Shown: positions 3,261 to 38,264, counted from the stretch's first letter. The stretch is DNA of 64,000 nt from Clostridia bacterium (GCA_900768535.1 CAAGDE010000026.1:50535-114534), one strand, 5' to 3'. Made by a program: numbers and translations. The notes: generated by a model not told the origin, from the letters alone.

Positions 3261-3280
3261 GGGCTCCTCCTTTAAGGGTA

Positions 3281-3350
3281 AGACCTTGAGACGCTGTCTC
3301 AAACTCTGCTTAGCCCCTTCTTGTAAGAAGGGGCTAAGAACACCAAGAAC
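3281..3350 (-). repeat. Intercistronic element A, copy 1 (two hairpins directly upstream of the recO RBS)
   Basis: About 70 nt, near-identical to 38134-38203. Hairpins are GAGAC-N3-GTCTC and CTTAGCCCCTTCTT/AAGAAGGGGCTAAG. Confidence 0.8.
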
Positions 3351-3402
3351 TTTCACTGCAGGGATTTTTTTACGAAAATCAGGGGGTATTTTGTGCTTTA
3401 TT

Positions 3403-3646
3403 GGGAAGCATTACGTGACTACGTTCGCCGATTTCGCCCTCATCCGGCGCTGGCGCACCACCTTCCCCACCCAGGGGGAAGGCTACTGCGGCAGTCCATA
3501 ATTGATTGGGACAGCGCCGATTGATAAGTGGAATTGAGAAGTAGGACATAAAAAACTTTGTACAGCCGAAAGAAGCCTTCCCCCGGGTGGGGAAGGTGGC
3601 GCGCCAGCGCCGGATGAGGGCGAAATCGGCGAGCGCAACCACGTAA
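3403..3646. repeat. Nested-palindrome repeat unit B (about 80-nt inverted arms around a roughly 90-nt spacer)
   Basis: Arm 3403-3484 is the reverse complement of 3574-3646. The whole unit, spacer included, recurs at 31418-31650. Confidence 0.85.
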
Positions 3647-6698: not shown

Positions 6699-7865
6699 TC
6701 AGTCTGTCACATCAAATTCGACCTGCTCCGCGATGTCCTCAATACACAGAACCGTGCATTCCAGGATGACCTTCTCATCGGTCAGGGTCATAACGGTCGT
6801 GCGGGAGAGCAGCTGCGCGTTTTCGGCAAGTGCACGGAGCTCCGCCTCCAGCCGGTCATACGCCAGCGTGGCGGCTTCCGTCTGCGTCCGCTCCACCGGC
6901 TCCTCCCGCCACAGTCTGCGGAGCTGTTTCCGGAAGGATAGCGGCAGATTGCGCAGGAAGGGCAGATCGGGATGTGTTTCCGTTTCTATTATATCACAAC
7001 TGACTGCCTCATTTCCAGTGTTTTCTGAAATTTTTCCCGTAAAAGCGAAAAAATTCAACCACACGTCACCTTTTTCCGTGGCATAATAGACCTTTTCGGT
7101 GTCCTGCAGGGGGATTTCCACCGTCAACTGATGCTCTGTCCTTGCCGTCACCCGTCCTGCGGCACGGGTAAAGCGGCATCCGATGTTCTCATTTTCGAAA
7201 ATACCGCTGACCAGCAGGTCCCCGCGGCGGACCGCCTGCCCCGCCCGAACCACCGGATTGCCGCGGAACAGCTCAACCGTCTCAATCTGTCCGTCCGTCC
7301 GCGCGACAAGGTCTGCCGGGCGCAGCTGCTCCTCCCTGGGCGGCTTCACCTTTCTCTCCAGCACCTGCACCTTTGCAACCGTTCCCTCCATGTGAATCGA
7401 AATCCACGCAAGCCGGTCGGAGGCAAGCAGGACCCGGTTCTCCACTTCGCCCGCCGAAAAGCCGGGGAGATAGGAGCCGACGCCGAATCCGCTCTCCCCC
7501 AGCACCGCCGTCACCTCCGCCGCGCTCATCTCCCGGTTTCCCGTGACCCGGATATCCCACACGTACAGCCGGGAAACGATCAGAAGCACCAGTGCCAGCA
7601 CACCGCCCAGAATCAGACCGGGACGGCGCAGAATCCGTCCGGCAAGCAGAGGCAGTCCGCCGCGCCGCCCCTCGGAAAAGACCGCCTGCCCGCGCAGCCG
7701 GGGAAGGGATCGGGTGGCACAGAGCAGCCGGATCCCGCCCTCCGGATCGGTGTCAACTGCGGAAAACGGCAGATCGAGCCGCAGGAACGCGTCCAGCAGT
7801 CCGGCGGCGTGCTCCGCATCGGCGGAAAGCTCCGTATATCCGGAAAGAAAGAGAATCGGATTCAT
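6699..7865 (-). CDS. yqfD: Sporulation protein YqfD
   Basis: 388 aa with a central TM segment. Positioned yqfC-yqfD-phoH as in Bacillus and Clostridia. Confidence 0.8.
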   Translation of the reverse strand: MNPILFLSGYTELSADAEHAAGLLDAFLRLDLPFSAVDTDPEGGIRLLCATRSLPRLRGQAVFSEGRRGGLPLLAGRILRRPGLILGGVLALVLLIVSRLYVWDIRVTGNREMSAAEVTAVLGESGFGVGSYLPGFSAGEVENRVLLASDRLAWISIHMEGTVAKVQVLERKVKPPREEQLRPADLVARTDGQIETVELFRGNPVVRAGQAVRRGDLLVSGIFENENIGCRFTRAAGRVTARTEHQLTVEIPLQDTEKVYYATEKGDVWLNFFAFTGKISENTGNEAVSCDIIETETHPDLPFLRNLPLSFRKQLRRLWREEPVERTQTEAATLAYDRLEAELRALAENAQLLSRTTVMTLTDEKVILECTVLCIEDIAEQVEFDVTD

Positions 7866-8143
7866 CCCTTCACCCCCTCCGGCTCCTCAAAGGTCACCGA
7901 GCGGATCCTCCCCGTCAGCGTGGCGCACGCACAGGAAAAGGACACGCAGACAAGACCCTCTCCCCGCACCGCAAGCACCGATTTTTTCAGCTTCAGGCGG
8001 ATGCACACCGAGGTGTAGGTCAGAATCCGCCGGCATCCCTGCGCCGCCACGCGCTCCTGCCCCCACACCGTCACGCTTTCCCCGTACGGAAAGATGCTCC
8101 GCGCCTCCGCCGCCGCGCGCGGCTTTCGTTTTTTGTTTTCCAT
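7862..8143 (-). CDS. yqfC: Sporulation protein YqfC
   Basis: 93-aa ORF with a 4-nt overlap to yqfD. YqfC-like size and position. Confidence 0.7.
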   Translation of the reverse strand: MENKKRKPRAAAEARSIFPYGESVTVWGQERVAAQGCRRILTYTSVCIRLKLKKSVLAVRGEGLVCVSFSCACATLTGRIRSVTFEEPEGVKG

Positions 8144-26079: not shown

Positions 26080-27240
26080 TCAGCCCTCCGCTTCCAGCTC
26101 CTGCAGGATGCGGTCTGCCAGCGCTTGGGTTGTGGCGCCGGTGGCATCTCCGGTGATGCGGACGGCTTCCGGACCGGAGGTCGCTCGCTCCATCGCGCGG
26201 GAAAGGCGGTCTGCTTCGTCCGGGAGCGCAATGTGCCGGAGCATCATCTCCGACGCGCGCAAAAGACTGGACGGGTCGGCATACGCGCCCAATCCCGCTT
26301 CAATCATGCGGGGTGCCGAGCCGTGAATCGCTTCAAACATGGCATAGCGGTCGCCGAGGTTCGCGCTTCCGGCTGTCCCCACACCGCCCTGGAGCTGTGC
26401 CGCCTCATCGGTGATGATATCCCCGTACAGATTCGGCAGCAGGAAGACCTGAAACCCGCTCCGGACGGCGGGATTGACCAGATTTGCCGTCATGATATCA
26501 ATATACCAATCCTCGGCGGTGATACCGGGATAGTCCGCCGCGATCTCGTGGCAGACGGCGGAAAAGCTGCCGTCCGTTTTCTTCATGATGTTGGCTTTGG
26601 TGACGATGGCAACCCTGGTTTTTCCGTTCGCCTTCGCGTATTCGAACGCCGCGCGCGCAATCCTTCGGGTTCCCGCATCGGTCGTCACCTTGAAGTCCAT
26701 TGCCAGCTTTCCGGGGATCACCACCCCGCGACTGCCGAGCACGTACTCCCCCTCGGTGTTCTCGCGGAAGAAAATCCAGTCGATCCCCTCCTCCTTCACG
26801 GTCACCGGGCGCACGTTTGCATACAGGTCCAGCTCCCGGCGTAGGGCAACATTGGCACTCTCCAGCGTTCCGCCCTTGGGCGTTGCGGTCGGACCCTTGA
26901 GCAGGACATCGCACTCCCGGATTGCCGCCAGCACATCACGGGGAACCGCCTCCCCCTTTGCCAGCCGGTTCTCCAGCGTCAGCCCCTCAATGTCGCGCAG
27001 GACGATCTGTCCCGATGCAATCCGGTCTCGCAGGAGCACCTCCAGAATCCGGCGCGTCTCACGCATCAGAATCGGTCCGATGCCGTCCCCGCCGCAGACG
27101 CCGATGACGATCCGCCCGGCGTGTGCGTAATCCTTTGCCGGGGATGCCTGCTCCATCCGCGCCTGTCTGGCAAGCTGTTCCTCCAGCAGGATGTGGAACT
27201 GCTCCACTGCCCGGTCAATCTCCGTTTCAAACACGGTCAT
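26080..27240 (-). CDS. icd: Isocitrate dehydrogenase (isocitrate/isopropylmalate dehydrogenase family, probably NAD-dependent)
   Basis: Family motifs GDGIGPI, NLYGDIITDEAA, GSAPR. Operon context with aconitase and citrate synthase. Confidence 0.8.
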   Translation of the reverse strand: MTVFETEIDRAVEQFHILLEEQLARQARMEQASPAKDYAHAGRIVIGVCGGDGIGPILMRETRRILEVLLRDRIASGQIVLRDIEGLTLENRLAKGEAVPRDVLAAIRECDVLLKGPTATPKGGTLESANVALRRELDLYANVRPVTVKEEGIDWIFFRENTEGEYVLGSRGVVIPGKLAMDFKVTTDAGTRRIARAAFEYAKANGKTRVAIVTKANIMKKTDGSFSAVCHEIAADYPGITAEDWYIDIMTANLVNPAVRSGFQVFLLPNLYGDIITDEAAQLQGGVGTAGSANLGDRYAMFEAIHGSAPRMIEAGLGAYADPSSLLRASEMMLRHIALPDEADRLSRAMERATSGPEAVRITGDATGATTQALADRILQELEAEG

Positions 27241-27257
27241 TCCTCCTTTGTTGTCCG

Positions 27258-29177
27258 TCAGTGCGTGACGGCAAGCAGTCCGCCTGCCTTCAGCATCGCA
27301 ATCTGGCGGGGTGTCAGCGCACAGGTCAGCGGGATCTCCGCGCCGGTCGTCTCATCGGTCAGGGTGATGCGTCCGCTCTCCATTCCGGCAAACACACCGG
27401 AAAGCGTCAGGCGGTCGCCCTCGCCGACCCGGTCATAATCCGCCGCGTCCGCAAAGGTCAGGGGGAGAATGCCGGCATTGATCAGGTTTGCCGCATGAAT
27501 CCGCGCAAAACTCTTGGCAATGACCGCACGGATACCGAGGTACAAGGGAACCAGCGCCGCGTGCTCCCGTGACGAGCCCTGACCGTAGTTCGCACCGCCC
27601 ACAACAATCCCCTGCCCGGCACGCACGGCACGTTCGGGGAATTCTTTATCGCAGACCGCAAAGCAGAACTGCGACAGATAGGGAATGTTCGACCGGTACG
27701 GCAGAATCTTCGCCCCCGCAGGCATGATGTGGTCGGTGGTGATGTTGTCCCCCACCTTCAGGACCAGCTCCGCGGTGAGGCGATCCGTCTGCGGAACGCA
27801 TTTCGGGAAGGGCTTGATGTTGGGACCGCGCAGAATCTCCACCGATGCCGCATCCGCCGGATCTGCAGGCGGCAGAATTGCGCTGTCGTCCGCCCGGAAG
27901 TGCCCGGGCAGGGTCACGACCGGGGCATCTCCCAGATCGCGCGGGTCGGTAATGACCCCCGTGAGTGCCGCCGCAACCGCCGTTTCGGGAGAGACCAGAT
28001 AGACCTTTGCGTCCGCCGTACCGCTTCTGCCCTCAAAATTGCGGTTGAAGGTGCGCAGACTGACCCCGCCGGAGTTCGGCGAAAAGCCCATGCCGATGCA
28101 GGGTCCGCACGCGCACTCCAGCACCCGTGCGCCGGACGCCAGAATGTCCGACAGTGCGCCCAGATCGGCGAGCATGGTCAGCACCTGCCGCGAACCGGGA
28201 GAGACCGACACACTGACCTCCGGAGAAACGGTCCGCCCCTTCAGCAGCGCCGCCACCTTCATCAGATCCGACAGCGATGAGTTGGTGCAGGAGCCGATGC
28301 AGACCTGATCCACCTTCGTCCCCGCAACCGAGGAAACCGGAACCACCCGGTCGGGGCTGTGCGGACAGGCAATCAGCGGCTCCAATTCCGACAGATCCAG
28401 TTCCAGGACCTGATCGTACACCGCGTCCGGATCGGCAAAAACCGGGGTGTAGTCCCCCTCCCTGCCCTCGGCGCGCAGAAAGTCCCGCGTAACCTCGTCC
28501 GCCGGAAAAACAGAGGTCGTCGCGCCCAGCTCCGTTCCCATGTTGGTGATGGTGGCACGCTCCGGAACCGTCAGCGTCCGGACACCCTCCCCGCCCCATT
28601 CGATGATGTATCCGACCCCGCCCTTGACCGTCAGTCGGCGCAGCAGCTCCAGGCTGACGTCCTTTGCCGTGACGAACGGACGGAGCCTGCCGCGCAGGTT
28701 GACCCGGATCATCCCCGGCATGGTGATATAATACGCGCCGCCGCCCATGGCAACCGCAACGTCCATTCCGCCCGCACCGAAGGCGAGCATTCCGATGCCG
28801 CCGCCGGTCGGGGTATGGCTGTCCGAGCCGATGAGCGTCTTTCCCGGCACGCCGAAGCGCTCCAGATGCACCTGGTGGCAGATGCCGTTGCCGGGGCGCG
28901 AGAAGTAAATGCCGTGTTTCCTTGCCACCGACTGAATGTAGCGGTGGTCGTCCGCGTTCTCAAAGCCGGATTGCAGGGTGTTGTGGTCGATGTACGCCAC
29001 GCTCCGCTCGGTCTTCACCCGGTCGACTCCCATGGCTTCGAATTCCAGATACGCCATGGTTCCGGTCGCATCCTGTGTCAGAGTCTGATCAATCCGCAGA
29101 CCGATCTCCTCCCCCCGCTTCATTTTTCCCGCAACCAGGTGTGCGCCGATGATTTTCTCCGCAATCGTCTGTCCCAT
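27258..29177 (-). CDS. Aconitate hydratase (about 640-aa clostridial type)
   Basis: Fe-S Cys ligand contexts IGSCTNSS and CGPCIGMG, plus a swivel domain. AAGGGGAG RBS before the ATG at 29177. Confidence 0.9.
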   Translation of the reverse strand: MGQTIAEKIIGAHLVAGKMKRGEEIGLRIDQTLTQDATGTMAYLEFEAMGVDRVKTERSVAYIDHNTLQSGFENADDHRYIQSVARKHGIYFSRPGNGICHQVHLERFGVPGKTLIGSDSHTPTGGGIGMLAFGAGGMDVAVAMGGGAYYITMPGMIRVNLRGRLRPFVTAKDVSLELLRRLTVKGGVGYIIEWGGEGVRTLTVPERATITNMGTELGATTSVFPADEVTRDFLRAEGREGDYTPVFADPDAVYDQVLELDLSELEPLIACPHSPDRVVPVSSVAGTKVDQVCIGSCTNSSLSDLMKVAALLKGRTVSPEVSVSVSPGSRQVLTMLADLGALSDILASGARVLECACGPCIGMGFSPNSGGVSLRTFNRNFEGRSGTADAKVYLVSPETAVAAALTGVITDPRDLGDAPVVTLPGHFRADDSAILPPADPADAASVEILRGPNIKPFPKCVPQTDRLTAELVLKVGDNITTDHIMPAGAKILPYRSNIPYLSQFCFAVCDKEFPERAVRAGQGIVVGGANYGQGSSREHAALVPLYLGIRAVIAKSFARIHAANLINAGILPLTFADAADYDRVGEGDRLTLSGVFAGMESGRITLTDETTGAEIPLTCALTPRQIAMLKAGGLLAVTH

Positions 29178-29187
29178 GATACTCCCC

Positions 29188-29838
29188 TTACTCCGTGTAA
29201 CCGTCAATGATATGGCGGGCGGCGTTTATGATATGTGTATGCATTGCGCGTTCGGCAGCGTCCGGATCATGCGCGGCAATGGCTTCGAAAATGCTCCGGT
29301 GCTCGGCGGCGGACTCCTCAGCCCGGCTGTGATCCTCCACCGAAACACGGCGGTATTTCTGCACCTTCCTGTGAAGCGGCAGAAGGACATCCTCCAGCAC
29401 CACGCTCCCGCTGAACCGGTAGATCAGCTGATGGAACCGGCTGTCCATTCCCCGCACGTGCTCCGGGTCATTCCGCGGAACGTAAAATTCCTGCAGCTCC
29501 ACTGCCTCACGAAGCTGTTCCAAATCCTCCCCGGTTACCCGCTCCGCCGCCGCGCGCGATGCCAAACCCTCCACACGCTCCCGCACGGCAAAAATATCCT
29601 CCAGATCCTTCCGGGACACGCCGACGATCAGAATGCCCTTTGCGCCCGTTTCCACCAGGTGCTCCAGTCCCAGCCGGTGGAGCGCCTCCCGGATCGGTGT
29701 CCGGCTGACGCCCAGGTCACTGACCAGCCGCATTTCGGTCAGAACCGTGCCGATCGGGTATTTCCCGGACAGGATGTCGTTCTCCAGACGCTCGAAAACC
29801 TGATCCGCCAGAGAAATACTGCGATGTTCCTCCATCAT
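29188..29838 (-). CDS. GntR-family (FadR/FCD subfamily) transcriptional regulator
   Basis: N-terminal wHTH (LVSDLGVSRTPIREALHRL) and a C-terminal helical FCD-like domain. Confidence 0.85.
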   Translation of the reverse strand: MMEEHRSISLADQVFERLENDILSGKYPIGTVLTEMRLVSDLGVSRTPIREALHRLGLEHLVETGAKGILIVGVSRKDLEDIFAVRERVEGLASRAAAERVTGEDLEQLREAVELQEFYVPRNDPEHVRGMDSRFHQLIYRFSGSVVLEDVLLPLHRKVQKYRRVSVEDHSRAEESAAEHRSIFEAIAAHDPDAAERAMHTHIINAARHIIDGYTE

Positions 29839-29850
29839 TTCCGTACCTCC

Positions 29851-31227
29851 TTACAGTCTTCTGAACCGGGAGCCGGACAGCTCCTCAATCTTTTCCTCCA
29901 CCTCGTGAACCGCCAGCGTTGTCTGTCTGCCGCCATCATATTCGGCATCGATCCACGCCTTGAGCTTCTGCACCAGCGGGTCGCGCTTATCGATGCGTTC
30001 CGATTCGGTCAGGCGGTAGTTTTCGTTGATCCAGTACGCAATCCCCGCCAGTCCGGAGGTCTTACCGAGCATGACCGACGCCGGTCTCCCCAGCAGCTTG
30101 CCGGTATCGAAGATGTTGTAGATCTCCTCGTCCTTGAGCAGTCCGTCCGCATGGATTCCCGCGCGGGTGACATTGAAATTTCTGCCAACAAACGGCGTCA
30201 TATCCGGAATGCGGTAGCCGACGTTCCGCTCGAAATAGTCCGCGATCTCGGTAATTACGGTCGGATCCATGCCGTCAAACGAACCGCGCAGGGAGGCATA
30301 CTCGATGACCATCGCCTCCAGCGGGATATTTCCGGTGCGCTCGCCGATGCCCAGCAGGGAGCAGTTGACCCCGCTGGCACCGTACAGCCACGCCGTGGTC
30401 GCGTTGGTGACCGCCTTATAAAAATCGTTGTGCCCGTGCCACTCCAGCATCTGGCTCGGCACATCGGAGTAATGCTGGAGACCGTAGATAATCCCCGGCA
30501 CACTGCGCGGAATGGCAACCTCCGGATACGGAATGCCGTAGCCCATGGTATCGCAGGCACGGATCCTGACCGGAATCTTCGCGTCCGCCGACATCCGCAT
30601 CAGCTCGTTGACAAACGGCACCACGAATCCGTAAAAGTCGGCGCGCGTAATGTCCTCCAGGTGACAGCGCGGCATCACGCCGGCTTCAAACGCATCCGCA
30701 ACGGTTGCCAGGTAGTGCTCCATGCACTGGCGGCGGGTCATCTTCATTTTCCTGAAAATGTGATAATCCGAACAGGAGACGAGAATGCCCGTCTCACGGA
30801 TACCGAGGTCACGTACCAGCCGGAAATCCTCGCGGCTGGCACGGATCCAGGTGGTAATCTCCGGGAAGCGCAGTCCCAGCGCCTGGCACTTCTCCACCGC
30901 TTCCCGATCCTTTTTGCTGTAGACGAAGAACTCGGTCTGGCGGATGATTCCGTACGGTCCGCCGAGCTTGGACATCAGCCGATAGAGATCGACGATCTGC
31001 TCGACCGTGTACGGCTCGACCGACTGCTGTCCGTCACGGAAGGAGGTATCGGTGATCCAGATGTCCTCCGGCATACCGATCGGTACGCGCCGGTGGTTGA
31101 ACGGAATGCGCGGCACACAGCTGTAGGGGTAAACATCGCGGTAAAGATTCGGCTCCTCCACGTCCTGAAGCGAATATTTGTACGCCTTTTGCTCCAACAG
31201 ATTGGTTTTTTTGGATATTTCAAGCAT
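29851..31227 (-). CDS. Re-face citrate synthase candidate (homocitrate/2-isopropylmalate synthase family)
   Basis: DRE-TIM motifs DTSFRDGQQS and HGHNDF. Operon with aconitase and IDH, as in clostridial Re-citrate synthase loci. Start at MLEISKK is consistent with the promoter at 31261-31289. Confidence 0.75.
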   Translation of the reverse strand: MLEISKKTNLLEQKAYKYSLQDVEEPNLYRDVYPYSCVPRIPFNHRRVPIGMPEDIWITDTSFRDGQQSVEPYTVEQIVDLYRLMSKLGGPYGIIRQTEFFVYSKKDREAVEKCQALGLRFPEITTWIRASREDFRLVRDLGIRETGILVSCSDYHIFRKMKMTRRQCMEHYLATVADAFEAGVMPRCHLEDITRADFYGFVVPFVNELMRMSADAKIPVRIRACDTMGYGIPYPEVAIPRSVPGIIYGLQHYSDVPSQMLEWHGHNDFYKAVTNATTAWLYGASGVNCSLLGIGERTGNIPLEAMVIEYASLRGSFDGMDPTVITEIADYFERNVGYRIPDMTPFVGRNFNVTRAGIHADGLLKDEEIYNIFDTGKLLGRPASVMLGKTSGLAGIAYWINENYRLTESERIDKRDPLVQKLKAWIDAEYDGGRQTTLAVHEVEEKIEELSGSRFRRL

Positions 31228-31252
31228 CTGTGCCACCGTCCTTTCGTATTTG

Positions 31253-31289
31253 TGTATACAATTATACACGAAAACAAAGGATTTGTCAA
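31253..31289 (-). promoter_or_regulatory. Consensus promoter of the citrate synthase operon with a palindrome at the predicted +1
   Basis: Minus strand TTGACA-17-TATAAT, immediately followed by the perfect palindrome TGTATACA (31253-31260). Confidence 0.6.
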
Positions 31290-31392
31290 GGGCTTGCGGA
31301 AAGTTTTCCATATTATTTTCCGAAAATCCGGGTTCCCCCGCCGTTTCGTCCGCATCCGTCGCCTGCGGCGCTAAACTGCTTGCAGTTTTCTT

Positions 31393-31650
31393 ACCACCTC
31401 GAAGGGGAACTTGGGGTGGGAAGCCATACGTGATTGCGCTCGCCCATTTCGCCCTCATCCGGCGCTGGCGTGCCACCTTCCCCACCCGGGGGAAGGCTAC
31501 TGCGGCGGTTCGTAACTGATAGACACAGCGCCGATTTATAAGCAGGATTGAGGGGGGGATGTAACAAAATTTGCACAGCCGAAAGAAGCCTTCCCCCGGG
31601 TGGGGAAGGTGGCGCGCCAGCGCCGGATGAGGGCGAAATGGGCGAGCGTA
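31393..31650. repeat. Second locus of the nested-palindrome repeat family B (full unit plus partial extra arm)
   Basis: Arms 31418-31498 and 31587-31650 are inverted copies. The arms and spacer are homologous to 3403-3646. Confidence 0.85.
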
Positions 31651-31686: not shown

Positions 31687-32085
31687 CTACATCCCCCGGA
31701 ACGGATCGTTTCGTGCCATCCGTTCCAGTCGGATGCCAACCACGGTCAGTCCCCGGCGGAAGGCACGGTAGGCGGTGCGGCGCGAAATGCCGAGAATCGC
31801 CGCCGCGCGCTCCACGCTCTCCCCCCGGATGTAACGGTGATACAGCACCAGCTTGTCCCGACCGTTCCGGAGCGATGCGATCGCCTGCCCGATCTCCTCC
31901 ATCCGCGCCCGCCAGAACGCCTCGTTTCCGGCAAGCACATCCTCACACCGGCACGGCTCGTCAAAGGTTTCCGCCCGGCGCCGCTCATATCGCTTCAGCT
32001 CCAGCAGATCCAGACACAGCTGATACCCCGCCAAAAAATCCCGTGCCGCCGCAACGCGTGCGTCCGTCCGCTCCTGCTCGGTCAT
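31687..32085 (-). CDS. Small sigma-70 region-4-like / phage-type transcription activator-like protein
   Basis: 132 aa with the C-terminal HTH pattern DKLVLYHRYIRGESVERAAAILGISRRTAYRAFRRGL. Start at MTEQERT. Confidence 0.55.
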   Translation of the reverse strand: MTEQERTDARVAAARDFLAGYQLCLDLLELKRYERRRAETFDEPCRCEDVLAGNEAFWRARMEEIGQAIASLRNGRDKLVLYHRYIRGESVERAAAILGISRRTAYRAFRRGLTVVGIRLERMARNDPFRGM

Positions 32086-32225
32086 GCCTTCACCTGCTTT
32101 CGTGTGCTTCGGAAACACGAATGAACATTCCCGTTTCCCGTTCGGTTTTCCGTCCGGGTGATGAATTCCGACCTTTGATGAAATACCCGATTTGTCATTT
32201 GTTTTCCCCTTTTTTCATTTTTCTG

Positions 32226-32254
32226 TTGACATTTTTTCCGTTTTGGTGTATACT
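32226..32254 (+). promoter_or_regulatory. Promoter of the XRE-S24 repressor gene
   Basis: TTGACA-17-TATACT, which predicts a 5' UTR of about 150 nt. Confidence 0.55.
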
Positions 32255-32276
32255 GTTATCAGGCACTCTTATTATA

Positions 32277-32390
32277 TCGCATTTCCGAAGTATTGTCAAG
32301 ACATATTTTCGCATTTCCGAAATATCAGCACTTTGAACAATTTCCTGTGTCGCATTCGGTCGAAGGCAGGAGAAAACCATTCCGAAAATC
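32277..32390 (+). promoter_or_regulatory. Tandem TCGCATTTCCGAA(G/A)TAT repeats (candidate operators) in the repressor leader
   Basis: 17-nt repeats at 32277-32293 and 32309-32325 (32-bp spacing). Degenerate copies at 32349-32366 and 32378-32390. An inverted TTTCCGAA lies at 32108-32116. Confidence 0.4.
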
Positions 32391-32404
32391 GGGAGGATCA
32401 ACAA

Positions 32405-33031
32405 ATGAACTACGCAAGGCTCGAGCACCTGCTGGCGGCGCACGGCGTCACGGTCTATCAGGTATCCAAGGCAACCGGAATTTCCCCCTCTACCTTTTCG
32501 GATTGGAAAAGCGGCAGATCCAGTCCGAAGGCGGACAAGCTGGCACGTCTGGCGGATTACTTCGGCATCGGGCTGGATGAGCTGCTCGGCACCGACTGCG
32601 GGGAGAGACAGACCGCATCCCGGCTGCAAAGTCTGCTTGCCAAAAAAAAGGTCCCGGTTATCGGCGTCATCCGGGCAGGCGCACCGATTGTGACAAGCGA
32701 AACCCTGCTTGGCATGGAATTTGCCGATGTGGACGATCCGGACGATTATTTCTATCTGCAGGTCTGCGGCGACAGCATGAAGGACTGCGGCATTGTGGAC
32801 GGCTCCTATGTCCTCTTCCACAAGCAGCAGCAAGCCGAAAACGGTGAGGTCGTGGCGTGCCTGGTTGACAGCGACAGCGCAACGGTCAAGCGCTACGAAA
32901 AGCGGAATCACCGCATTGTCCTCTCGCCGGAAAACGAGAGCTATGAGCCGATCTTCCTGACTCCGGAGGACTTTGAAACCGGACGCGCCCGGATCCTTGG
33001 CGTGGCGGTGGAAGTAAAAACGAAATTCTGA
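32405..33031 (+). CDS. XRE-family HTH plus S24 peptidase repressor (CI/LexA-like, self-cleaving type)
   Basis: HTH_3-like N-terminus (VYQVSKATGISPSTFSDWKSG), Ala-Gly site (VIRAGAPI), Ser in CGDSM and Lys in VKRY. GGGAGG RBS. Confidence 0.85.
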   Translation: MNYARLEHLLAAHGVTVYQVSKATGISPSTFSDWKSGRSSPKADKLARLADYFGIGLDELLGTDCGERQTASRLQSLLAKKKVPVIGVIRAGAPIVTSETLLGMEFADVDDPDDYFYLQVCGDSMKDCGIVDGSYVLFHKQQQAENGEVVACLVDSDSATVKRYEKRNHRIVLSPENESYEPIFLTPEDFETGRARILGVAVEVKTKF

Positions 33032-33041
33032 GGTATCCATC

Positions 33042-34970
33042 ATGCTTTGTCTGACAGTCAGCGACCTGTCCCTCTCCTACGGCACCGCTCCGGTGCTGGA
33101 GAAAGTCTCCTTTTCGGCAGACGAAAACGACCGCATCGGCGTCATCGGCGTCAACGGGTGCGGCAAATCCACGCTGTTCCGGCTCATCCACGGCGACCTG
33201 GAACCAACGGCGGGAAATATCTATCTTTCAAAAGGAAAAACCGTCGGCATTCTGCGGCAGGACGATGCCTTTGACGCCGCAGACAGCCAACAGACCGCGG
33301 AGGAACGGATGCTCCATGCCTTCCCCCATCTGCTTGCCATGGAGGCGCGTCTGCGGGAGCTGGAGGCGGGAGAGCTGAAAAGCGGCAGCGATGCGGCGGT
33401 GAAGGAATACACCGACCTCCATGACCGCTACGTGCGGGAGGGCGGGCTGGAATTCCGCGCACGGTGTACCTCCATTCTTGCAAGGCTCGGCTTTGACGAG
33501 GGTCAGCGGGCGCAGACGGTGGGAACGCTCAGCGGCGGACAGCGCACGCGTCTTGCGCTTGCAATCCAGCTCTCGCGGGAGCCGGATATCCTCCTGCTCG
33601 ATGAGCCGACCAACCACCTCGACATAGCGACCCTCTCCTGGCTGGAGGGATTTCTTTCGGGTTACAAAAAATGCTTCATGGTCATCTCCCACGACCGCTA
33701 TTTCCTTGACCGCGTGACCAACAAGACCCTGCTGATCTCCCATCACCGCGCCACGCTCTATCAGGGCGGCTATACCAAAAGCATGGCACAGCGTGAGACC
33801 GACCGCGAAATAGCCGAACGGCATTGGCGGAATCAGCAAAAGGAAATCGCGCGGCAGGAGGCGTATATCGCCCAACAGCGGGCGTGGAACCGGGAGCGAA
33901 ACATCATTGCCGCCGAGAGCCGGCAGAAGCTGCTGGATAAAATGGAAAAGCTGGAGCGCCCCGAAGCCGATCCGCGTGCCGTCCGGATGTCCTTTTCCGA
34001 AGCCGTCGCGTCCGGAAACGATGTGCTGGACGTGCGGCACCTGACCATGGGCTTCCCCGGCAGAACACTGTTCAGCGATATCTCCTTTCTCATCCGCCGG
34101 CAGGAGCGCGCACTGATCATCGGTCCAAACGGGTGCGGAAAATCCACGCTCATCAAGCTCATCCTCGGTCAATTGCAGCCGCTCTCCGGCGTGATTGAGG
34201 AAGGATATCACGTGGAAATCGGCTACTACGACCAGGAAAACCAGCACCTGTCACCGAAAAATACGGTCCTGGACGAATTGTGGAACGCCTACCCCACGCG
34301 CACCGAAACGCAGATCCGTCAGGCACTGGCACTCTTCCGCTTCACCGGAGAGGACGTGTTCAAGGAGGTCGCAGTGCTCTCCGGAGGCGAGCGGGCACGG
34401 CTGACGCTGGCGAAGCTGATGCTTTCCAAAATGAACCTCCTGGTGCTGGACGAGCCGACCAACCACCTCGATATGGATTCCCGCGAAGCACTGGAGGCGG
34501 CACTGGAGCAGTTTGAGGGAACGATTGTGATGGTATCGCATGACCGGTATCTGATCGAAAAGCTTGCCACCCGGATTCTGGAGGTCCGCCCCGGTGACGC
34601 CTTCCCCGGCGATCTGCTGGACTACACAGTCGATCATCCGGGACACGGATACAGCGAATTCACCGCCTACAAAACCGCCCGCATGGCCGAACGGCAGGCA
34701 GATCACCCGGCAGCGCAGGAATCCGCAGCCCCGACCACGCAAAAGGAGCAGTACCTGAAAAACAAGCAGGCAGCGGCGGAGGAGCGAAAGAAAAAAGCCA
34801 GGCTGGAACGCCTGGAAAAGGAGCGCATCGCCCTGGAAGCCGAACTGGACGCGCTGGAAAAGGAGCTGTACGGCTCTGCCGCCGCCGACTATATCCGCGC
34901 CGCAGAACTCGACCGAAAAAAGCAGGAAGCCGAGGAGCGACTGCTGGAAATTTACGGGGAGTTGGAATAA
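33042..34970 (+). CDS. ABC-F family ATPase (Uup/YdiF-like translation factor type, no TM domain)
   Basis: Two ABC cassettes (Walker A GVNGCGKST and GPNGCGKST; signatures LSGGQ and LSGGE) and a C-terminal coiled-coil tail. Confidence 0.92.
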   Translation: MLCLTVSDLSLSYGTAPVLEKVSFSADENDRIGVIGVNGCGKSTLFRLIHGDLEPTAGNIYLSKGKTVGILRQDDAFDAADSQQTAEERMLHAFPHLLAMEARLRELEAGELKSGSDAAVKEYTDLHDRYVREGGLEFRARCTSILARLGFDEGQRAQTVGTLSGGQRTRLALAIQLSREPDILLLDEPTNHLDIATLSWLEGFLSGYKKCFMVISHDRYFLDRVTNKTLLISHHRATLYQGGYTKSMAQRETDREIAERHWRNQQKEIARQEAYIAQQRAWNRERNIIAAESRQKLLDKMEKLERPEADPRAVRMSFSEAVASGNDVLDVRHLTMGFPGRTLFSDISFLIRRQERALIIGPNGCGKSTLIKLILGQLQPLSGVIEEGYHVEIGYYDQENQHLSPKNTVLDELWNAYPTRTETQIRQALALFRFTGEDVFKEVAVLSGGERARLTLAKLMLSKMNLLVLDEPTNHLDMDSREALEAALEQFEGTIVMVSHDRYLIEKLATRILEVRPGDAFPGDLLDYTVDHPGHGYSEFTAYKTARMAERQADHPAAQESAAPTTQKEQYLKNKQAAAEERKKKARLERLEKERIALEAELDALEKELYGSAAADYIRAAELDRKKQEAEERLLEIYGELE

Positions 34971-35044
34971 TGGGAAAGACACACACATAACCGGGAAAAG
35001 AAACCGGAAAGCTTGACAGCGCATTTTAGCGGTCGTCATTCACT

Positions 35045-35079
35045 GCCGATTGTTCCCCCTATGGCAGTCGGCTCTTTTT
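35045..35079 (+). terminator. Intrinsic terminator after the ABC-F gene
   Basis: GCCGATTG/CAGTCGGC stem followed by TCTTTTT. Confidence 0.65.
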
Positions 35080-35091
35080 GCTGTAAAGCAA

Positions 35092-35120
35092 TTGAAAAAT
35101 TTATAAAAAAGTGGTATAAT
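35092..35120 (+). promoter_or_regulatory. Promoter of the NERD gene
   Basis: TTGAAA-17-TATAAT with an extended -10 TGg. Confidence 0.55.
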
Positions 35121-35150
35121 TAGAATATTAAATGCTTAAGGAGGTATCCC

Positions 35151-36014
35151 GTGGGAATACGAGCATTTTTTCATAAAATCAAAATGGGCTTTGTAAGAGC
35201 CGGGGAGTCCTCCATTCCGTATGTCAATGAGGTGAAGCGTTACGGTAATTCCGGGGAGGATGAATTTACATATAGGCTCTGTAGAGAGCTTCCTTCGTGT
35301 AAAATCAAAAGAAATGTAGCCATTTTAACACCGGACGGCAATGCCGAAATTGACTGCCTGGTTCTCCATCATAATAAACTGTTTGCCATAGAGGTTAAGC
35401 GTTGGAAAGGATATCTGATCGAGCGAGACGATGGCTTTTTACAAGAAAAAACGGATAGGTGGACGGGAGAGACACATACAAAGCTTCTGAAATCACCATT
35501 CAAACAGCTCGGTAGAGCTATATACCTTTTGCGAAAGCAAATCCCCATTAAGGCGTGGGTGAATGCCGTTGTATTCTTTGAGGATGACGAATTGGAATCG
35601 GTTTCTGCTTTTTCGGATAATGTATGGTTTGACCGCTATCAAGATCTTGTGGATTATATCAGCAATGACGGCAAGGTTTCTTTCGGCACAAGCGCAAATG
35701 ACTTCTTTGAAAGATGCGTACCCGCTGACTACCTATACGTCAATGCTTGGGGAAAGTCCTTGCATTGTATTATCAACCGCACCACGTTGAGGTTTAAAAC
35801 TCCCCAAGTTGATATTTCTGCTGACAATATTGACTCCATTCGTATCTCCCACCATTGGTCTTATGACGAATTGCATATTACTATGGCGGATGGCTCAATA
35901 AAAACAATAACGCTTGAAAACGCAAAAATCCAAGTTAGCGACAACGGTCGCATCAGCACCTATGCTCTATGCAAATTGGATTATATTGAGCTGGGCAGAA
36001 CGCTAAATCGGTAG
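35151..36014 (+). CDS. NERD (nuclease-related domain) protein with an uncharacterised C-terminal half
   Basis: GTG start 7 nt after AAGGAGG. NERD-like core GEDEF...AEIDCLVLHHNKLFAIEVKRWKG. Visibly AT-rich relative to its flanks. Confidence 0.7.
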   Translation: MGIRAFFHKIKMGFVRAGESSIPYVNEVKRYGNSGEDEFTYRLCRELPSCKIKRNVAILTPDGNAEIDCLVLHHNKLFAIEVKRWKGYLIERDDGFLQEKTDRWTGETHTKLLKSPFKQLGRAIYLLRKQIPIKAWVNAVVFFEDDELESVSAFSDNVWFDRYQDLVDYISNDGKVSFGTSANDFFERCVPADYLYVNAWGKSLHCIINRTTLRFKTPQVDISADNIDSIRISHHWSYDELHITMADGSIKTITLENAKIQVSDNGRISTYALCKLDYIELGRTLNR

Positions 36015-36102
36015 CGATGAATATGAATACAATTTGCGTCTTCATCGAAAAAATAGCCCGAACCACACAAACGAAGAAAATTTCTAAAAATCTTCCAGAA
36101 CA

Positions 36103-36147
36103 AAAGTCCCGCCCCCCCCTTATGTATCAAGGGGTTTTTGGGACTTT
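36103..36147 (+). terminator. Compound hairpin after the NERD gene
   Basis: AAAGTCCC...GGGACTTT outer stem enclosing CCCC...GGGG, followed by CTGTTT. Confidence 0.45.
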
Positions 36148-36224
36148 CTGTTTGACGAAAAATTGCGAGAAACAAGGGAGAAATTAAGCAAAAAAACGAT
36201 CAAATGCGGAACCCGGCAAAAAAG

Positions 36225-36262
36225 AAAAAAGCCTCGAAAACGTAGTGTTTTCAAGGCTTTTT
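36225..36262 (-). terminator. Terminator of tRNA-Ser (bidirectional hairpin)
   Basis: 11-bp stem GCCTCGAAAAC/GTTTTCAAGGC flanked by A6 and T5 runs, directly 3' of the tRNA. Confidence 0.75.
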
Positions 36263-36263
36263 A

Positions 36264-36352
36264 TGGCGGAGAGGAAGGGATTCGAACCCTTGTGGGGTTG
36301 CCCCCAAACGGTTTTCAAGACCGCCTCGTTATGACCGCTTCGATACCTCTCC
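36264..36352 (-). tRNA. tRNA-Ser (anticodon UGA), CCA encoded
   Basis: Acceptor GGAGAGG/CCTCTCC, anticodon loop CTTGAAA, long variable arm TGGGGGCAACCCCACA and T-arm GGGTTCGAATCCC. Confidence 0.92.
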
Positions 36353-36503
36353 GTATATGAAACTGTCTTTCGACAAAAATCATCAGATATTCAATTGTTT
36401 TAGAAATTCTTTTAGAAATGCGCTTTTGTGCTGCTGTCAGAGTGCCGAAAAAGTCAGGTGTTGCAAGGCTTTTCAAGGTTTTTGCGACCGTTGTGCTCGC
36501 AAA

Positions 36504-36544
36504 TTTTCAAGACCGCCTCGTTATGACCGCTTCGATATCCCTCC
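36504..36544 (-). pseudogene. Truncated tRNA-Ser copy (5' half up to the anticodon loop only)
   Basis: 34 nt identical to 36312-36345 and then near-identical to the tRNA 5' end. No T-arm follows. Confidence 0.7.
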
Positions 36545-36635
36545 GTATAAACGGAACTATGAAACTGTAATCTGAAAAAGCATCAAAAGAAAATGCCGGA
36601 TGCCCGGAATTCAGGTCCTTTGCAAAACCATGTTT

Positions 36636-38117: not shown

Positions 38118-38133
38118 GCAATCAACTCCTTAA

Positions 38134-38203
38134 AGACCTTGAGACTCCGTCTCAAACTCTGCTTAGAACCTTCTTGCAAGAAGGTTCTAAGAACTCCAAG
38201 AAC
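38134..38203 (-). repeat. Intercistronic element A, copy 2 (directly upstream of the M20 gene RBS)
   Basis: Near-identical to 3281-3350. The long hairpin here is CTTAGAACCTTCTT/AAGAAGGTTCTAAG. Confidence 0.8.
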
Positions 38204-38264
38204 CTTTAACAAGGGGGCTTACTTATATTTTTCTCACAAATCGGGACATTATACGCGGTCAGTC

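Follow-up and report, generated by a model that had tools for sequence, protein, structure and literature searches.

Why should an uncultured clostridial chromosome carry, with no other phage genes about it, a repressor of the phage type facing a small sigma-like protein: is the pair the last trace of a mobile element, or a switch that the host has kept? The question is raised by positions 31,687 to 33,031 of a 64,000-nucleotide stretch of DNA (hereafter, the window) from Clostridia bacterium (GCA_900768535.1 CAAGDE010000026.1:50535-114534), for which a preliminary description had left two alternatives, a domesticated switch or the remnant of a decayed element. The evidence presented below from the flanking genes, the GC content and a repeat element on the left favours the first of these and speaks against the second. 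Together with an ABC-F ATPase gene that follows the repressor, the pair makes up a chromosomal module of three genes that is fixed in at least 80 species and is not the stray leftover of a dead phage, and we think it probable, if by no means certain, that the module is a domesticated phage immunity switch which has become a vertically inherited part of the core genome in uncultured gut Clostridia of the Oscillospirales type. Its three genes (hereafter, the trio) are listed here with the evidence that placed them.

31687..32085, minus strand: sigma-like gene, 132 amino acids (aa) from the ATG at 32085 (open reading frame (ORF) scan and orthologue alignment)
32405..33031, plus strand: repressor gene, 208 aa, starting MNYARLEHLL at the ATG at 32405 (Pfam and NCBIfam matches, orthologue alignment)
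33042..34970, plus strand: ABC-F gene, 642 aa with a C-terminal extension; two ABC_tran domains and ABC_tran_Xtn (Pfam)

The ORF scan found both members of the pair where they had been placed before, and their arrangement recurs far beyond this genome, more than chance would explain. A scan of one genome per species detected relatives of the repressor in 179 species, and the best 80 loci were fetched; these come from metagenome-assembled genomes labelled Oscillospiraceae, Eubacteriales, Clostridia or ‘Eubacterium sp. CAG:180’, from human and ruminant guts. In essentially all of the 80 loci that are long enough, tblastn searches with the window proteins recovered the same order of sigma-like gene (minus strand), repressor (plus) and ABC-F gene (plus), while the outer flanks differ, which is the outcome of the gene-neighbourhood comparison that the preliminary description had proposed; the pair that it had called ‘orphan’ actually lies within a conserved trio. 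The sigma-like gene was found in about 72 of the 80 loci, identities to the window proteins range across loci from 61 to 84% for the repressor, 52 to 86% for the ABC-F protein and 32 to 82% for the sigma-like protein, and the ABC-F gene usually begins 10–47 bp past the repressor.

Beyond these three genes, little is held in common. When all ORFs of the 80 loci were clustered, the only three widely shared clusters were those of the trio; the next commonest neighbour cluster, an ABC transporter, occurs in 17 of the 80 loci, and no conserved gene beyond the trio was found nearby in this set, the left and right neighbours varying in both identity and orientation. The outer genes of the window itself, whether on the left (homocitrate-synthase-like, GntR, aconitase and isocitrate dehydrogenase genes) or on the right (NERD, peptidase and ABC exporter genes), are common to its two closest relatives or to none, and a NERD gene and tRNA-Ser beside the trio are absent even in the closest relatives. 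Module GC tracks flank GC (r = 0.74, with a mean difference of +0.01), and the three genes co-diverge (Spearman 0.56–0.72). Because order is conserved amid unrelated flanks, composition is host-like and the genes diverge together, the trio bears the signature of a resident, vertically inherited unit and not that of a decaying insert.

The domain assignments made at the outset, XRE-type helix-turn-helix (HTH) plus S24 for one protein and sigma region 4 for the other, are borne out by Pfam, by an AlphaFold model and by fold matches in the PDB. For the repressor, Pfam matches include Peptidase_S24 (3e-23), HTH_26 (8e-12), HTH_3 (8e-10) and also HTH_31, and PHROG 4 ‘transcriptional repressor’ matches at 1.6e-36 across residues 4–207. 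The Pfam search gave no match to LexA_DNA_bind, the winged-helix DNA-binding domain of LexA, in agreement with the earlier remark that this domain is lacking; against the lexA equivalog TIGR00498 the protein scores 102.0 bits, below the cut-off of 110.95, and only C-terminal residues 80–204 align. The self-cleavage site and catalytic residues that had been judged intact are invariant among 26 orthologues (Ala91-Gly92 in IRAG, Ser124 in GDSM and Lys162 in VKR), whose alignment has a mean column identity of 84%. Database relatives number > 1,100, and the top 120 clusters are 71–99% identical and nearly all exactly 208 aa in length. Among the 100 closest cluster representatives in a library of 1.8 billion proteins, 100/100 carry S24 and 88/100 carry HTH_3, with the LexA DNA-binding domain in 0/100; given these nearest relatives, we assign the repressor to the cI/HdiR-type XRE-S24 radiation and not to LexA. 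A derivation of the S24 C-terminal domain from a host LexA was considered and rejected, its nearest relatives all being XRE-S24 proteins. The best full-length viral relative, among the 2.9 million viral contigs of IMG/VR, is only 33–39% identical.

The sigma-like protein is less readily placed by sequence profiles than by fold. Its minus-strand frame spans 31687..32118 in the ORF scan, and an in-frame GTG at 32118 offers a 143-aa alternative; we place the start at the ATG at 32085, where the orthologue alignment begins, and not at the GTG. The profile check that had been proposed for this protein gave a divided answer: HTH_23 scores 26.1 bits, above its Pfam cut-off, while Sigma70_r4_2 (23.1 bits, cut-off 25.7), Sigma70_r4 (21.1, cut-off 24.1) and DUF1492 (15.4, cut-off 21.5) all fall below theirs, so that the protein is not a sequence member of the Ltr families. 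TIGR02937 likewise scores below its cut-off (27.7 against 42.9), with model positions 67–158 only being aligned, and there was no match to Sigma70_r2 in the Pfam profile search. A profile search of a large protein database with the sigma-like family returned family members only and no distant homologues with informative context, and the sole match to the family profile among PDB sequences was region 4 of SigF (E = 0.016).

The AlphaFold (AF2) model of the protein (pLDDT 90.9) has a long N-terminal helix at residues 3–40, a loop, and a four-helix domain at residues 55–125. The top PDB matches of this domain are the region-4, or -35-binding, domains of extracytoplasmic function sigma factors, at target-normalised TM-scores of 0.7–0.8, and its fold matches region 4 of SigL, SigD and sigma-E with probability 1.0. 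In Foldseek searches with the full-length model, the matches were phage ‘Sigma-70 region 4’ and DUF1492 proteins of 120–150 aa, with E down to 2.6e-05 and TM-scores up to 0.66–0.70. As modelled, the protein is a sigma region-4 domain without region 2, and so not a complete sigma factor, and it resembles phage late-gene activators of the Ltr/DUF1492 type. No terminase gene was found among the downstream neighbours of the sigma-like gene in the window or in the related loci, where these neighbours vary in identity and orientation.

The third member of the trio starts 10 bp past the stop codon of the repressor and, given this spacing, is presumably co-transcribed with it. Its product scores 453.7 bits against the generic ABC-F model NF000355 (cut-off 380), and falls far below the cut-offs of all the resistance-type models (OptrA, Vga, Sal, Msr, Lsa and CplR); its closest solved relatives, by sequence matches in the PDB, are YbiT, YheS, EttA and Uup. 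On these scores we classify it as a translation-type ABC-F ATPase and not as a member of the antibiotic-resistance (ARE) subfamily.

What, then, controls the three genes? A footprint of the control region, made by aligning 72 orthologous intergenic regions on a common anchor, together with a position weight matrix (PWM) for the operator, built from 140 O1 and O2 sites, yielded the predicted elements listed here, along with a short upstream ORF.

32226..32254, plus strand: predicted promoter P1, TTGACA-17-TATACT, 11/12 consensus, directed towards the repressor and ABC-F genes
32271..32299, minus strand: predicted promoter P_sig, TTGACA-17-TATAAT, 12/12 consensus, directed towards the sigma-like gene
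32273..32294, unstranded: predicted operator O1, TATATCGCATTTCCGAAGTATT, a 22-bp dyad in the P_sig spacer and part of the -10 box; PWM score 32.4 bits
32305..32326, unstranded: predicted operator O2, ATTTTCGCATTTCCGAAATATC, just upstream of the P_sig -35 box; PWM score 22.3 bits; direct repeat D1
32104..32125, minus strand: predicted operator-like site O4, TTCATTCGTGTTTCCGAAGCAC, just upstream of the sigma-like start codon
32332..32340, plus strand: short element TTTGAACAA, family consensus TTnnCACAAA, in the 5′ untranslated region of the repressor
32082..32198, minus strand: 38-codon upstream ORF, its TGA overlapping the sigma-like ATG (ATGA); window counterpart of the zinc-ribbon position described below, role uncertain

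The pair had been taken for a classic back-to-back layout; its promoters are instead crossed. P1 lies on the sigma-like side and is aimed at the repressor, P_sig lies on the repressor side and is aimed at the sigma-like gene, and the two stand face to face. P1 (TTGACA-17-TATAAT or TATACT) is present in 69 of the 72 loci and P_sig in 72 of 72, always with spacers of 17 bp, and the two -10 boxes are 16 bp apart in the window and 14–17 bp apart in 68 of 69 loci. Judging from this geometry, the predicted transcription starts, about 7 nt beyond the -10 boxes, would practically coincide at about 32261–32264, and two polymerases could not sit there together; RNA polymerase would then occupy one promoter at a time.

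The predicted operator is a 22-bp dyad with the consensus TATaTCGnATTTcCGaAaTATT. O1 falls at about +12..+33 of P1, and the centre-to-centre distance between O1 and O2 is 32 bp in the window, about three helical turns, and varies by no more than 2 bp among 70 loci. The P1 spacer of 30 of the 72 loci holds an additional copy, O3 (TTCGGAAATCCG), which is degenerate in the subclade of the window. Nearly all of the 72 loci have the O4 core (CGNATTTNCGAA, with <=1 mismatch) on the same strand, close to where the sigma-like gene starts; O4 is of a variant type, CGGATTTGCGAA, and pairs with O1 as inverted repeat I3. Downstream of O2, 46 of 72 loci carry the element TTnnCACAAA at a fixed offset, 34–35 nt past TGTCAA, compared with 7% of random 75-nt windows; the element might serve as a second site for protein binding, with the sigma-4 protein as a candidate.

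Two smaller features of this region may be recorded alongside. In about 26 of the 72 loci the first gene of the P_sig transcript is an extra ORF of 80–115 aa encoding a LIM-like zinc ribbon (CxxC...CxxC...L[VI]RICE), the longer versions of which have weak LIM and zinc-ribbon Pfam matches; examples are L024 (an 82-aa ORF), L030, L032, L041 and L077. The codons of its ‘RICE’ motif coincide with O4, and loci that no longer have the ORF still keep the O4 sequence. A 14-nt direct repeat, TTCCGAAAATC(C/G)GG, is found at 31318–31331, at the start of the homocitrate-synthase-like gene, and at 32380–32393, just before the ribosome-binding site of the repressor; it resembles the operator core and was not among the sites that the PWM picked up.

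How far the repressor reaches can be gauged from the distribution of its predicted operators. Within the window, the PWM at >= 10 bits finds O1 and O2 only, with none near recQ or recO. At >= 14 bits it finds sites in 80/80 switch regions and, in the remaining 1.01 Mb of the loci, a single stray match, inside ABC-F coding sequence. With the window, 1.07 Mb of clade DNA was covered, and an ordinary SOS regulon would normally become visible among flanks so variable; for this reason the repressor looks like a local regulator, with a handful of distant sites per genome being possible. No canonical LexA was found in the window or in the 80 loci (1.01 Mb), where tblastn with the LexA proteins of E. 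coli and B. subtilis matched the S24 gene only. Matches to canonical Gram-positive SOS boxes in the window are no more than chance would give, and the 80 loci contain 10 such matches, 8 of them in coding sequence, an uninformative result.

The origin of the switch is best approached through its operator. A search of IMG/VR with the operator itself returned nine contigs, three of which (L173, L175 and L179) are genuine immunity regions, where the operator lies between a side carrying an ImmR-like XRE repressor, an ImmA-like protease and an integrase, and a side carrying a Cro-like XRE gene and early genes. O1 of the window is matched at 22/22 positions by the site in L179/L138, a phage contig, and almost as closely by those in L173 and L175; the phage HTH proteins are 44–58% identical to the N-terminal domain of the repressor. 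The phage regions also have face-to-face promoters, each matching the consensus at 11/12 positions, with 17-bp spacers that carry operator sequence, 67–87 bp apart. More broadly, operator-like variants stand right beside the HTH gene in 66 of 80 viral loci with the same HTH type. Since operator, HTH and promoter design are all common to phage immunity regions, we regard the chromosomal switch as a compacted descendant, or a sibling, of a widespread phage immunity cassette, a reading that agrees with the phage-like ancestry first proposed for the pair. Two genuine phages aside, IMG/VR contains no copy of the exact switch composite, so that the module is not being classed as viral anywhere.

The remaining six of the nine viral matches to the operator pattern (L171, L172, L174 and L176–L178) were rejected as operators, all being located inside the large-terminase gene of one low-GC phage lineage; the matching sequence there, TATGTCGAATTTCCGAATTATT, is conserved within that lineage and most likely resembles the operator by chance, as part of the coding sequence. 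Variants of the operator skeleton (TAGGATTTCCTA, TATGATTTCATA and TCACATTTCCGA) are found in promoter spacers across a large family of immunity regions of gut phages (for example L127 at 7380–8040, and many among L099–L170), seemingly as versions of a single HTH/operator system that differ in specificity.

In the working that we propose for the trio, repressor dimers would at rest occupy O1 and O2, perhaps also O4, and O3 in many species; P_sig would be shut and P1 left free, so that repressor and ABC-F protein would be made. Repressor bound at operators downstream of P1, and at O3 where this is present, could act as a roadblock and thereby provide negative autoregulation. Upon a stress signal, most likely filaments of RecA on single-stranded DNA after DNA damage, the repressor would cleave itself at Ala91-Gly92, a step that we infer because the Ala-Gly, Ser and Lys residues are invariant and because LexA, cI, HdiR and FddR behave in this way. 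P_sig would then fire, compete with P1 and occlude it, giving a sharper flip, and the sigma-4 protein would accumulate and act in trans on promoters elsewhere, or feed back on the switch.

Several observations weigh against a local, RecA-triggered switch of phage descent. Binding, cleavage and promoter competition in the trio are all deduced from sequence. HTH and operator are conserved to a degree that one would sooner expect of a regulator with many sites, and, about 1 Mb around the switch having been sampled, a small regulon may exist elsewhere in the genome. Cleavage need not depend on RecA: IrvR cleaves without it (PMC7101444), and the stresses to which PrlP responds are other ones (PMC12273997). 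For the sigma-4 protein no target was found, nothing beyond the trio being conserved nearby in the 80 loci. The sigma-like protein has no sequence relatives among the 2.9 million viral contigs of IMG/VR, whether queried with a single sequence or with an alignment, and because of this the argument for its phage origin is drawn from fold and architecture only. Finally, no convincing helical phasing between O4 and O1 was detected (unique distances, p ~0.15), which lends no support to looping.

Other explanations make different use of the same observations. The S24 protein might be the functional LexA of the clade, a non-canonical master repressor of XRE type that governs an SOS regulon across the genome, as in Bacteroidetes, with the sigma-like and ABC-F genes as just two of its targets. 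XRE-type substitutes for LexA do exist (PMC8565304, PMC13148647), the window and the 1.01 Mb of loci contain no canonical LexA, repressor and operator are unusually strongly conserved, and the C-terminal domain, at 102 bits, comes close to the 110.95 cut-off of the lexA equivalog. The preliminary description had itself raised the prospect of a LexA orthologue conserved throughout the clade at a syntenic position, and the protein is indeed clade-wide, syntenic and probably single-copy; its nearest relatives, however, are of the cI/HdiR type and not LexA (0/100 with the LexA DNA-binding domain). Operators at >= 14 bits, moreover, are confined to the switch bar the one coding-region stray in 1.01 Mb, with none near recQ or recO of the window, and we consider a clade LexA distinctly improbable. 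Improbable, too, in our judgement, is a host-encoded immunity or phage-sensing module, in which the repressor would share operator specificity with temperate phages and either repress them or be titrated or displaced by Cro or ImmR, with the sigma-4 and ABC-F proteins as the response arm. The 22/22 identity of O1 to the immunity-region site of L179, the near-identical sites in L173 and L175, the 44–58% identity of the phage HTH proteins to the repressor N-terminal domain, and strong purifying selection without an obvious local target speak for such a module, yet shared ancestry alone explains the similarity, the exact operator type is found in three IMG/VR phage contigs only, and defence-system models (PADLOC) gave nothing more than generic HTH and ABC matches.

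The ABC-F protein might alternatively be the real output, as a ribosome-associated or Uup-like factor placed under stress- or antibiotic-responsive control, with a cleavage signal other than RecA and with the sigma-like protein serving as local Cro-like or anti-repressor feedback. It is the sole non-regulatory gene linked to the switch in about 80 species, usually 10–47 bp past the repressor, S24 regulators that are RecA-independent or respond to multiple stresses exist (PMC7101444, PMC12273997), and the fourth operator-like site and the conserved untranslated-region elements suggest dense local control. On the wiring described here, however, ABC-F protein would be made together with the repressor at rest and induction would tend to favour the promoter opposite, none of the resistance-type models comes near its cut-off, and the closest structural analogues of the sigma-4 protein activate distant promoters (PMC3753634), which leaves this explanation very improbable. 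The other alternative offered at the outset, that a prophage or conjugative element has decayed between left-hand repeats and a right-hand tRNA-Ser until only the pair is left, is already contradicted, to the point where it can scarcely be maintained. The components of the pair are phage-like, a low-GC NERD gene lies beside a tRNA-Ser with a duplicated 5′ half, and there is a repeat element on the left; but the trio occurs in 80/80 related species with unrelated flanks, module GC is on average within 0.01 of flank GC, the switch composite is absent from IMG/VR apart from the two genuine phages, and no integrase, structural or transfer genes were found around the trio within the window, which the preliminary description had also remarked, nor any att repeats enclosing the pair. 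Neither of the supposed boundaries holds: the repeats on the left are an independent element resembling a miniature inverted-repeat transposable element (MITE), with another copy at 3402–3646, 28 kb away, and the tRNA-Ser, like the NERD gene, is specific to the genome of the window and absent from this position in its closest relatives. A domesticated immunity switch, the reading that we prefer, might also be extended in a direction that we regard as unlikely: the trio would be a clade-wide master switch whose operator specificity matches that of temperate phages of the same bacteria, coupling host and phage decisions through host-encoded immunity or synchronised induction; its sigma-4 factor would drive a distant set of genes of the late-gene kind (tailocin, gene-transfer agent or lysis genes) or DNA-damage genes, and its face-to-face promoters would give bistability without Cro.

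The region downstream of the repressor gene holds an ABC-F gene, a NERD gene and tRNA-Ser in the order first described, with these features following the ABC-F gene.

35045..35072, plus strand: terminator-like hairpin with a T run, after the ABC-F gene (consensus scan only)
35151..36014: NERD gene, in a 42%-GC stretch and with its own promoter-like site
36264..36352, minus strand: tRNA-Ser(tga), downstream of the NERD gene

The hairpin is likely to mark the end of the operon. GC content is 42–47% across 35001–36560, which holds the NERD gene next to tRNA-Ser(tga), and the 5′ half of the tRNA gene (36312–36357) is duplicated at 36504–36549 with 96% identity. As NERD gene and tRNA are absent beside the trio in relatives, 35001–36560 has the look of a small island, or of a scar left by integration, confined to the genome of the window. 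No known RNA families were found in the leader regions, the only match being tRNA-Ser. The remainder of the window is ordinary core genome, with genes for SMC, Lon, RecQ, RecO, a GTPase and phosphoribosyl pyrophosphate synthetase, as well as the aconitase, isocitrate dehydrogenase and homocitrate-synthase-like cluster. In the latter, a homocitrate/isopropylmalate-synthase-like gene on the minus strand (26080–31326 region) scores below all equivalog cut-offs and is clustered with the GntR regulator, aconitase and isocitrate dehydrogenase genes in an arrangement common to the two closest relatives only; the cluster may represent an oxidative branch of the tricarboxylic acid cycle of the Re-citrate-synthase type. 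The MITE-like element is about 234 bp long with terminal inverted repeats of 65–93 nt, and its copies at 31417–31650 and 3402–3646 are 88–93% identical; the former lies between the sigma-like and homocitrate-synthase-like genes, where it creates spurious ORFs (MGKVARQRRMRAKWAS...). A second dispersed repeat, of 74 nt, intergenic and containing a hairpin, occurs at 3280–3353 and 38133–38206 (88% identical) and resembles a repetitive extragenic palindromic (REP) element or a terminator.

The trio has partial parallels among systems of known function. In PrtR/PrtN of Pseudomonas aeruginosa and Xre/Xpf of the Bacillus subtilis element PBSX, a domesticated repressor holds down a small positive factor for a phage-derived function: PrtN switches on pyocins, and the sigma-like Xpf switches on the PBSX late genes, Xre itself having no S24 domain. 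The targets of those two pairs are known, and are nearby or well defined, while for the trio no target was found. Coliphages 186 and P2 have face-to-face lytic and lysogenic promoters, with mutual interference as part of the switch; about 62 bp separate the start sites of phage 186, where interference arises chiefly in the elongation phase, whereas in the trio the predicted start sites coincide, which would imply direct competition for binding.

The gut Firmicutes phage immunity regions of the ImmR/ImmA type (L173, L175 and L179) share with the trio the operator family, identical in L179, the STFSDWK recognition helix, the placement of operators in 17-bp promoter spacers, and near-consensus promoters standing face to face. 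They differ from it in that their repressors lack S24 and adjoin an ImmA-like protease and an integrase, their opposing gene is Cro-like, and their promoters are 67–87 bp apart as against 14–17 bp in the trio.

Among chromosomal regulators, the S24 repressor FddR of Francisella also has an N-terminal domain of phage type and is fixed at a core position throughout the genus; its autoregulation works through a palindrome in the region of its own promoter, and it controls itself and divergent genes as a self-contained unit (PMC13148647). It belongs to a different phylum, however, recognises a different operator (GTG-N11-CAC), and has no sigma-4 partner and no ABC-F gene, nor are face-to-face promoters described for it; its binding and its induction by DNA damage have been shown experimentally (PMC13148647), while the trio is known here from sequence alone. 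IrvR, with IrvA, of Streptococcus mutans (PMC7101444) and HdiR of Streptococcaceae (reviewed in PMC8565304) are likewise core-genome XRE-S24 ‘LexA-like’ repressors of phage cI ancestry with a small local regulon each, that of IrvR including a small regulator gene. Unlike the repressor of the trio, IrvR and HdiR share no transcript with an ABC-F gene; where the trio has a sigma-4 partner, IrvR is paired with IrvA, an XRE protein of the Cro-like kind, IrvR cleaves independently of RecA (PMC7101444), and HdiR controls umuC-type cassettes (PMC8565304). The sigma-like protein finds its counterpart in the Ltr activators (RinA, ArpU, LtrA with sigma70_r4 and LtrB with DUF1492; PMC3753634), which are of about 120–150 aa with a C-terminal sigma-4-like domain and ultimately under cI-type control, the LtrA and LtrB families being activators of late operons whose expression is controlled by cI repressors (PMC3753634). 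It differs from them in scoring below the family cut-offs, in having no terS or late operon downstream, and in being encoded on the chromosome with predicted direct repression at its own promoter. What is distinctive in the trio is the combination of coincident face-to-face consensus promoters with operators in their spacers, a partner consisting of sigma region 4 only, permanent linkage to an ABC-F gene, and breadth within an uncultured clade.

Co-opted phage S24 repressors (HdiR, IrvR, FddR and PrlP) are emerging as a repeated route to small stress circuits, and the trio adds the abundant uncultured Clostridia of the gut to those in which this route may have been taken. With a defined 22-bp operator in hand, and with phages that carry the same operator, the output of the sigma-4 protein and cross-talk between host and phage become questions testable in heterologous hosts, as does whether an ABC-F protein may form part of a DNA-damage response.

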